Both the position numbers and the translations under genes were made by a program. DNA of 64,000 nt from Minisyncoccota bacterium (GTDB taxonomy: Bacteria; Patescibacteriota; Minisyncoccia; Phycocordibacterales; CSBR16-119), in contig JAWKSO010000002.1 in NCBI GenBank assembly GCA_041389105.1, positions 18,336 through 82,335 of the forward strand. The letters are read 5' to 3'. The notes under the pieces were generated by a model. The model was not told the origin of the DNA. It did no database searches and saw only the letters and a program-made list of their open reading frames with translations. Below, piece by piece: positions 27,395 through 27,604 of the stretch (position 1 is the stretch's first letter; each line of letters begins with the position of its first letter).

Positions 27395-27604
27395 CATTTA
27401 ATAAAAAACACCTGACGAGGGTGTTTTTTATTTTTAATGTTTCGTGGTGAGAAAAAGCATTTCTGCTTTTTCATGCTGACTCGAAAGCCGGAGCGATGCG
27501 CGAGCTTGTCGAGCGCCGCGAGGTGGGGTCGAAAGTTCTTAGGTTTTTTCGAGCTTGTGAGAAAAAAACTTAGAAACTTGTGACCGAGTCGGCCCCCCGC
27601 AACA
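27395..27604 (+). repeat. tRNA-3'-end-associated structured insert, copy A (family 1)
   Basis: Contains a terminator at 27403-27431 and an inverted T-loop copy GACTCGAA at 27478-27485. It also has a 9-bp hairpin GAAAAAGCA/TGCTTTTTC, the core CGCGAGGTGGGGTCGAAAG and a T6C/GA6 hairpin. It ends with GTGAC followed by a perfect 20-nt duplicate of the tRNA 3' end (27585-27604 = 27377-27396). Confidence 0.7.

Follow-up and report, generated by a model that had tools for sequence, protein, structure and literature searches.

A structured RNA element flanked by antisense and sense copies of tRNA 3' ends in Patescibacteria: a candidate family of protein-less mobile elements

The initiator tRNA locus and its insert

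The window analyzed here, a stretch of 64,000 nucleotides from a Patescibacteria genome of 37% G+C, contains an intact initiator tRNA gene followed by a short insert that ends in a second copy of the tRNA 3' end. This tRNA-Met(CAT) shows the C1xA72 mismatch that marks initiators as a rule. We refer to the insert as element A, and to the duplicated tRNA segment, the last ~20 nt running from T-loop C56 to about position 74, as X. The features of the locus, in window coordinates, are:

27324-27395, plus strand: intact initiator-type tRNA-Met(CAT), host gene of element A (ARAGORN; Rfam tRNA match of 64.1 bits)
27377-27396, plus strand: X1, the own 3' end of tRNA-fMet from T-loop C56 to position 74/75, first copy of the direct repeat
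27400-27432, plus strand: terminator 1, a hairpin between tRNA-fMet and element A (terminator scan)
27437-27604, plus strand: element A as a whole (family 1)
27438-27449, plus strand: first part of the antisense arm, TGTTTCGTGGTG, a degenerate complement of the acceptor 3' strand plus ACA
27451-27472, plus strand: optional 9-bp hairpin GAAAAAGCA/TGCTTTTTC, exactly between the anti-acceptor and anti-T-stem segments
27476-27485, plus strand: second part of the antisense arm, CTGACTCGAA, the complement of the T-stem 3' strand and T-loop
27481-27587, plus strand: conserved RNA core of family 1 (RNAalifold; covariance model R1, 114.5 bits; pair counts)
Within the core, first part: junction UCGAAA, P2 (ACC/GGU), P3 hairpin at 27491-27516, strand GAGGUGGGG
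Within the core, second part: P4 (GGUCG/UGACC), P5, P6 hairpin at 27538-27573, end GUGACCGA
27585-27604, plus strand: X2, the sense copy of the tRNA-fMet 3' end, 3' strand of the closing helix and second copy of the direct repeat
27606-27648: 19-bp palindromic terminator common to element A and the convergent gene
27652-28212, minus strand: convergent gene of 186 aa adjoining the palindrome

The original prediction, made from this DNA alone, had described the intact tRNA-fMet, its terminator, a 20-nt repeat, a second terminator, several hairpins and a GC-rich core, and all of these are in place, with the tRNA ending at 27395, the GC-rich core at 27517-27535 and a U6C/GA6 hairpin at 27544-27567. 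An exact search of the window gave just two occurrences of the repeat CGAGTCGGCCCCCCGCAACA (27377-27396 and 27585-27604), against none expected from 100 shuffles. The duplicate also survives independent assembly, since tRNA, insert, repeat and terminator are identical in sequence in an ENA metagenome contig (L002); it is therefore not an assembly artefact. What had been called a degenerate inverted copy of the tRNA 3' end is indeed present, and indeed degenerate in element A; it is at the same time a regular part of the design, namely an antisense arm that pairs with the sense copy. The sense arm of element A is perfect. Its antisense arm matches the perfect complement at 10/11 positions beside the core, where CTGACTCGAA pairs with 27585-27592 and includes the T-loop complement GACTCGAA at 27478-27485, and in the acceptor part TGTTTCGTGGTG can pair at about 9/12 positions, a segment for which other loci have perfect equivalents.

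Expression of element A is unproven because terminator 1 separates it from tRNA-fMet, and no promoter-like site was found before the element. Copies that have no intervening terminator (the Thr-linked copies of L042 and L043 and the Met-linked copies of L042 and L045) are, judging from their sequence, likely to be co-transcribed with their tRNA.

Five such elements, the number originally proposed, lie in the window, and they fall into two core families: three of family 1 (A, B and C) and two of family 2. The four other than element A, with their hosts, are:

59321-59700: tmRNA gene, host of element C
~59740-59899, plus strand: element C, family 1, directly 3' of the tmRNA gene (model R1 match at 59773-59899, 54.9 bits)
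~62274-62438, plus strand: element B, family-1 core (model R1 match at 62303-62438, 94.9 bits)
26886-26960, minus strand: tRNA-Asp, host of a family-2 element
26680-26885, minus strand: family-2 element behind tRNA-Asp, with terminator (~26848-26880), antisense arm (26819-26832), core (~26733-26818), 24-nt sense copy (26707-26730) and second terminator (26680-26706)
17771-17895, plus strand: family-2 element behind an aberrant tRNA-Gln-like gene (17700-17770), with antisense arm (17784-17798), core (~17799-17886) and short sense copy (17887-17895)

Element C consists, in order, of a terminator, the tmRNA 3' end in antisense with an inserted hairpin, a variant core and a truncated sense copy. 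Element B has the same anti-tmRNA arm and the same upstream terminator (62249-62273) as C, a decayed sense copy, and a decayed tmRNA 3' end nearby at 62205-62235; its core, the second copy at 62282-62427, differs from that of element A in the 5' hairpin by compensatory changes. The arms of family 2 do not finish at the T-loop TCGA.

A conserved RNA core behind many different tRNAs

The core of family 1, ~105-120 nt long, is structured and uncatalogued in Rfam. When 22 distinct copies were aligned with MAFFT, RNAalifold derived a consensus of 31 pairs, with compensatory changes in 18 of them, and the alignment served to build covariance model R1. In the alignment of 39 hits to R1, which is fitted to the model and agrees with the MAFFT/RNAalifold result, 26/31 pairs show double changes; in the same fitted alignment paired cells reach 91.9%, compared with 68.9% in shuffles and 33-41% in slid-partner controls. 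The core thus has the covarying structure that defines structured non-coding RNAs in general. G-U pairs outnumber A-C pairs by 65 to 14, and the structure therefore belongs to the RNA read on the tRNA strand. Folding of single sequences, at z = -2.5 for A and -0.1 for B, was uninformative.

The consensus fold is a three-way junction. A closing helix, P1, is formed from the flanks; P2 (ACC/GGU) encloses a variable hairpin, P3; and a long arm, P4-P5-P6, consists of GGUCG/UGACC, GAGUAC/GUAACUC and a variable tip. The invariant single strands are UCGAAA, GNAG and CGAGGUGG. The distances between conserved blocks fall in all three mod-3 classes (9/6/12 and 7/6/14), and for this reason the 48-codon ORF that overlies the insert is not a gene. 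Strong covariation and frame-free spacing together bear out the expectation that the insert is non-coding and structured. An alternative genetic code, considered for the fragmented ORFs, was rejected: long genes have no in-frame TGA, and code 11 holds.

Around this core the units are built to a common plan. Behind the tRNA, whose end is X1, comes either a short loop or a terminator hairpin that is palindromic. The reverse complement of X follows, in many copies extended by a few bases of trailer, then the core and X2, after which the native flank resumes. Elements measure ~170-215 bp, fresh copies are all ~200 bp, and 19-22 nt are duplicated. In family 1 the junctions lie on the palindromic T-loop TCGA, the antisense arm ending in ...UCGAA and the core in GUGAC|CGA... 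The hairpin that follows X1 gives conflicting signs of being native or element-borne, as terminator 1 of element A is similar to the native terminator at the empty sites of L042 and L046, and L009 and L016 have a homologous hairpin after X1 at different tRNAs.

In the predicted fold the two arms pair into a helix that repeats, in sequence, the acceptor stem (7 bp) and T stem (5 bp) of the tRNA, giving a minihelix or, with an extra arm, a junction. The core would occupy the place of the T-loop, closed off by the helix in the manner of the tRNA-like domain in tmRNA. In about half of the copies the 7-nt anti-acceptor and 5-nt anti-T-stem segments are separated by a 9-10-bp hairpin whose A/G and GU linkers are conserved; this hairpin recurs at the equivalent position with compensatory sequence in A, B, C, L006, L018, L026, L031 and L039, and in element A its insertion is modeled to produce a tRNA-like three-way junction. 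Older copies retain the core while their sense arm decays, which suggests that the closing helix may be dispensable after insertion.

Rfam 15, searched with both family-1 copies at the gathering score and at E up to 10, returned only tRNA as a passing match. The best other match, to OrzO-P on the opposite strand, scored 35.5 bits against a threshold of 60 and was rejected as a look-alike made of a hairpin and a terminator. By covariance-model score, then, the core belongs to no Rfam 15 family, whether group I/II introns, HEARO/omega RNAs, small ribozymes, tmRNA, YrlA or any other.

Further copies had been predicted to exist elsewhere, and they do, in other Patescibacteria genomes and in metagenomes. 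A pattern of two conserved core blocks, run on GTDB genomes and on metagenomes, recovered 9 GTDB loci, all Patescibacteria (Nomura-, Kaiser- and Paceibacteria, and one labelled Saccharibacteria), together with 8 chance matches in G+C-rich genomes; the metagenome scan added 20 loci. An origin in phages or plasmids was rejected, as the viral contig scan gave only chance matches in coding DNA (L020, L021), and BLAST against phage and plasmid collections returned no match to the element. Our full-text search of the literature, of limited coverage and thus not proof of absence, found no description of such an element.

The association with tRNA genes is close: at each locus where it could be judged, the core sits immediately 3' of such a gene or of tmRNA. 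A tRNA or tmRNA lies on the same strand within 300 nt upstream in 33 of the 39 R1 hits, mostly 25-75 nt before the start of the hit, and the other 6 are contig ends or tandem arrays. The hosts comprise at least 15 identities, among them fMet/Met, Leu, Gly (GCC, CCC, UCC), Thr (UGU, GGU), Gln, Trp, Phe, His, Tyr, Ser, Pro, Lys, Asp and tmRNA.

Occupied sites, empty sites and target-matched arms

Relatives of the window were traced through the neighboring 186-aa protein (69-86% identity), and they keep the gene order ligA-gatC-gatA-186aa-tRNA cluster. Comparison of the tRNA sites gives the following:

fMet site: filled in the window and L002; empty in L042, L043, L045 and L046
Met (elongator) site: filled in L042 and L045; empty in the window, L043 and L046
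Thr (GGU) site: filled in L042 and L043; empty in the window, L045 and L046
Asp site: filled in the window (family 2), L045 (family 1) and L043 (a third variant); empty in L046

The proposal that the sequence behind the tRNA is an insert is upheld by the four same-order relatives in which tRNA-fMet runs straight into a terminator and has no insert. At filled Thr sites the native flank (..TTTACTTT..) resumes after X2. Different tRNAs are filled in genomes whose neighboring proteins are 80-86% identical. Whole units occur in tandem (L025/L035, L037), and older, truncated copies are stacked at L003, L008, L010, L024 and L035.

The arms follow the host. Their identity to the local tRNA reaches 22/22 and 29/29 positions. 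In L006 the antisense arm matches at 20/20 and the sense arm at 22/22 positions, and a 29-bp perfect palindrome spans the terminator; arms are also perfect in L029 (27/27) and L031 (19/19). Near-identical cores are found behind different tRNAs with arms that differ accordingly: L009 at Gln and L016 at Phe (~92% identical by inspection), L018 at Leu and L024 at His, and L008/L022 at Thr as against L027. Even non-conserved trailer bases are matched. The arms were therefore probably made anew at each insertion, copied from the target at or after that event, rather than carried along as a pre-existing guide or a fixed attP. Mature tRNA was rejected as the template, because genomic trailer bases and not CCA are found in the arms (for example in L006). 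The right edge of the repeat is always C at position 74, and at four loci (L016, L028, L031, L038) the sense copy, unlike the functional gene, goes on into CCA, which fits insertion after C74 of a CCA-encoding gene.

Scans of neighboring ORFs point to no linked protein gene. With Pfam we examined the ORFs immediately 3' of ten elements and, at 22 loci, the 91 ORFs that lie no more than 3.5 kb from an element; the 25 most recurrent of 125 matched families contain no integrase, transposase or reverse transcriptase. The 25 families listed for the 73 ORFs of the window likewise include no recombinase, transposase or reverse transcriptase. The recurrent neighbors among the listed matches are housekeeping families (EF-G/LepA, MiaA, DivIC and others), and the sole match of mobile type, a LAGLIDADG ORF after the Met-linked element of L042, does not recur. 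Of the core-linked recombinase gene for which the original prediction had suggested a search, there is no sign at the 22 loci among the 25 most recurrent of the 125 families. Several RNA-guided or RNA-templated systems were dropped on similar grounds. A guide RNA, with a scaffold and a 3' guide matching the tRNA, has no effector gene here, and the supposed guide is sense to the tRNA and paired with the internal antisense arm; a TnpB/IscB omega RNA or an IS110 bridge RNA would adjoin its effector, and the neighbors are housekeeping genes; a retron would share the paired ends, but no reverse transcriptase gene is nearby.

Possible origins and significance

We give about even odds to the reading that element A belongs to a Patescibacteria family of small mobile elements that encode no protein and insert at tRNA and tmRNA 3' ends, with a core flanked by antisense and sense copies of the target. 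Such an element would be non-autonomous and moved by a factor encoded elsewhere. How its arms might be copied is suggested by the palindromic T-loop. We favor fold-back (snap-back) synthesis pivoting on TCGA, in which a strand that has copied the core would re-anneal through this self-complementary motif and copy the target segment back, so that both arms would come from one template and the product would be an inverted triplication of the form X / reverse-complement-X / X. Alternatively, an intermediate in the form of a hairpin or dumbbell (X, loop, reverse-complement-X, core) may recombine with the chromosomal X, which would also account for the tandem units. The copying enzyme could be a reverse transcriptase or a DNA polymerase. 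A tRNA-like closing helix would let tRNA-processing enzymes or a polymerase define or recognize the RNA ends, and the modeled fold suggests that the RNA borrows tRNA-end recognition by RNase P, RNase Z, the CCA-adding enzyme or a polymerase able to initiate on tRNA-like ends.

A more far-reaching version, which we put forward only tentatively, is that of a mobile RNA element, free of protein genes, that rebuilds its ends from the tRNA at which it lands: the core RNA or cDNA would be joined at the T-loop/3' end, fold-back copying of the target would make the arms and with them a closing helix that mimics tRNA, and by way of this helix tRNA-maturation enzymes, together with a polymerase or reverse transcriptase acting in trans, would be able to excise and copy the element, possibly via a hairpin or dumbbell circle of ~200 nt.

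The element may instead be a host-serving non-coding RNA gene that works with the adjoining tRNA and is not primarily mobile, either as an antisense RNA or tRNA mimic acting on the tRNA 3' end or its precursor, or as a decoy for enzymes or toxins that act on the acceptor/T-helix. The core is strongly conserved across orders even as adjacent sense arms decay, the antisense arm often remains complementary to the functional tRNA (22/22 in L008, 28/30 in L009), every tRNA of some loci has an element (3/3 in L032, 2/2 in L018), and the closing helix is tRNA-like, all of which would suit such a role. We nevertheless think it rather unlikely as the primary explanation: the distribution is sporadic and strain-specific, copies are tandem, nested and truncated, the antisense arm of element A is degenerate, and the tRNA identity is not consistent. 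Strain-specific, tandem and truncated copies argue that mobility is primary over host function, although the two are mutually compatible.

The perfect 20-nt direct repeat that begins in the T-loop invites comparison with conventional integrative elements, as tRNA and tmRNA 3' ends are classic targets of integrases. Element A could be a remnant of one, a CIME-like attL-insert-attR scar left when a tyrosine integrase had recombined a fixed attP, bearing the tRNA-fMet 3' end, with the T-loop and the cargo was later deleted. Empty sites in relatives agree with this, and repeated integration could yield the tandem units (L025, L037). Islands and cis-mobilisable elements of this kind in tRNA and tmRNA genes likewise leave an intact tRNA and a displaced 3'-end repeat from the T-loop, use tmRNA targets, and show empty sites and tandem accretion. 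The family described here differs from them in having no integrase, cargo or fixed attP, in a repeat and an additional inverted copy that change with the tRNA, and in a conserved part that is a structured RNA. A fixed attP does not explain one core at 15 or more tRNA identities with arms matching each, or near-identical cores behind different tRNAs. At the right junction the left arm is the conserved GUGAC of the core and not a symmetric T-stem half-site; fresh copies are all ~200 bp, unlike variable deletion products; the inverted copy is left unexplained; and no integrase is linked at the 22 loci among the listed families. We consider a scar improbable. The attL/attR signature that had been read into the locus thus holds for the direct repeat and the restored tRNA, but not for a fixed attP, given the range of tRNA identities and the re-made arms, or for a linked integrase.

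Replication template switching at palindromes (the terminator, the T-loop TCGA) could give an inverted triplication of the tRNA 3' end as a functionless by-product, and both the X / reverse-complement-X / X layout, a classic fold-back product, and the junctions on TCGA are what it would leave. It offers no account of a conserved 105-120-nt core with compensatory changes across dozens of genomes, or of one core at many tRNAs, and as a full explanation it is very unlikely; it may be the origin of the arms only. That the insert is a small protein gene (48-aa ORF, 27437-27583) is scarcely credible, for although an ATG-initiated ORF crosses it and many copies have long open frames, the block spacing ignores frame, variation tracks base-pair covariation and not codon positions, and the start codon and ribosome-binding context are not conserved.

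The reading of element A as a member of a protein-less mobile family places it near several known systems and within none of them. Like MITEs and REPINs, it is small, non-coding, multi-copy, intergenic, hairpin-forming and, on this reading, dependent on a trans factor. MITEs have element-specific terminal inverted repeats and short target duplications of fixed length, whereas the arms here are the local tRNA 3' end, the duplication of ~20 nt is bounded by the T-loop and the tRNA 3' end, and what lies between the arms is an RNA with a covarying fold. With R2 (which has an HDV-like ribozyme), SINEs and group IIC introns at terminators the element shares a conserved RNA gene or hairpin as target, a conserved structured RNA, and target-copied flanks compatible with target-primed synthesis; it differs in that the ORF scans gave no reverse transcriptase nearby and Rfam no known ribozyme fold, and in an inverted target copy that is absent from those systems. 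CTX-phi and other Xer-dependent elements (IMEX, folded single-stranded hairpins) also have inverted target-like sites ~100 nt apart that can fold into a target-mimicking hairpin, and their integrated form has the same inverted copy, spacer and hybrid site. Their target, however, is dif and not a tRNA 3' end, and the present element has arms that vary with the target and no phage genome. In tmRNA, viral tRNA-like structures and the Mauriceville retroplasmid transcript, paired ends similarly form an acceptor/T-type helix around an unrelated body, and such tRNA-like ends recruit RNase P, the CCA-adding enzyme or a polymerase; here the core replaces the T-loop, and the helix copies whichever tRNA adjoins. 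The element fits none of the known kinds of element against whose defining features it was compared, and the mechanism that we give is a proposal.

For genome analysis there are practical consequences. The elements account for many 'tRNA fragment' calls, and their tandem units break assemblies; they can be used as strain-level markers in CPR metagenomes. The core is a new structured RNA family and a candidate for Rfam.

Patescibacteria have very small genomes and had been considered poor in mobile DNA. If our reading is right, an element widespread among them targets genes that are the most conserved of the cell and leaves them undamaged, although it encodes no protein of its own; at each insertion it makes arms that match the target. 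It would raise the questions of how a tRNA 3' end comes to be copied in both inverted and direct orientation, which enzyme is responsible, and whether tRNA mimicry gives the element the use of RNase P, RNase Z or the CCA-adding enzyme. Should the tentative version, in which a mobile RNA rebuilds its ends from the tRNA at which it lands, prove true, these elements would form a new mobile-element class, a bacterial counterpart of retrozyme- and viroid-like replicons and a living tRNA-like 'genomic tag'.

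A second core family

Two further elements in the window are arranged like members of the first family, with an antisense arm followed by a core and a sense arm, but carry a different core, AAGAAGGGG(G)TC.GGGAAACA..TGTTTCCCC ... AAAACCGTGGGTTT.

Window 26680-26885, minus strand: second-family element behind tRNA-Asp
Window 17771-17895, plus strand: second-family element behind a tRNA-Gln-like gene

A third core variant lies behind the tRNA-Asp gene of L043, a relative with the same gene order. Our covariance model of the first-family core, R1, matched neither this variant nor either of the second-family window copies. 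For the tRNA-Gln-like gene itself (window 17700-17770), ARAGORN predicts a tRNA but leaves its anticodon undetermined. The sequence is similar to tRNA-Gln(CUG), although the anticodon loop is 6 nt long and the T-loop is TCTGAGT; the gene may be damaged, or it may encode an unusual tRNA.

Tandem units and split genes

Whole units, comprising the tRNA 3' end, terminator, antisense arm and core, are also repeated in tandem at other loci.

L025 3300-3646 with L035 1-130: tandem whole units
L037 4280-4590: tandem whole units

The end of the L025 contig falls within such a repeat, and the elements therefore probably break metagenome assemblies. In the window genome gatA is broken into short ORFs, as are the genes for a glycosyltransferase and for CTP synthase.

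Window 28217-29447 and 25900-26630, and L001 15560-16188: split-ORF regions (gatA, glycosyltransferase, CTP synthase)

In four relatives gatA is whole, at 469-479 aa. Recoding of TGA was excluded as the cause, and the split genes therefore reflect either frameshift errors in the assembly or pseudogenes.

Possible rearrangements at the tRNA-fMet and tmRNA genes

Window about 27225-27290: degenerate copy of the tRNA-fMet 5' part, upstream of the real gene
L042 3745-3790: corresponding tRNA-fMet 5' copy in a relative
L042 4234-4905: free-standing LAGLIDADG homing-endonuclease ORF, immediately downstream of the tRNA-Met element
Window 59900-62240: AT-rich, ORF-poor stretch of 2.3 kb between the tmRNA-type elements C and B
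Window 62205-62235: decayed tmRNA 3'-end copy, GGTTCGAAC..TCCACA, at the far end of that stretch

No such LAGLIDADG ORF was seen beside the elements of other loci. The L042 copy repeats the first 24 nt of tRNA-fMet exactly (CGCGGGGTAGAGCAGTGGTAGCTC) and begins to diverge near the anticodon loop; together with the degenerate upstream copy in the window, this sequence likeness suggests another, older rearrangement at the same tRNA. The independent metagenome contig L002 carries, upstream of tRNA-fMet and facing it, the C-terminal end (1318-1468) of a diverged second copy of the 186-aa gene (window 27652-28212). The relatives L043 and L045 have tRNA-fMet in the orientation opposite to that in the window. 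Either the tRNA cluster is polymorphic for an inversion or the assembly is chimeric. The 2.3-kb stretch between elements C and B has the appearance of a degraded islet that was inserted at the tmRNA gene.
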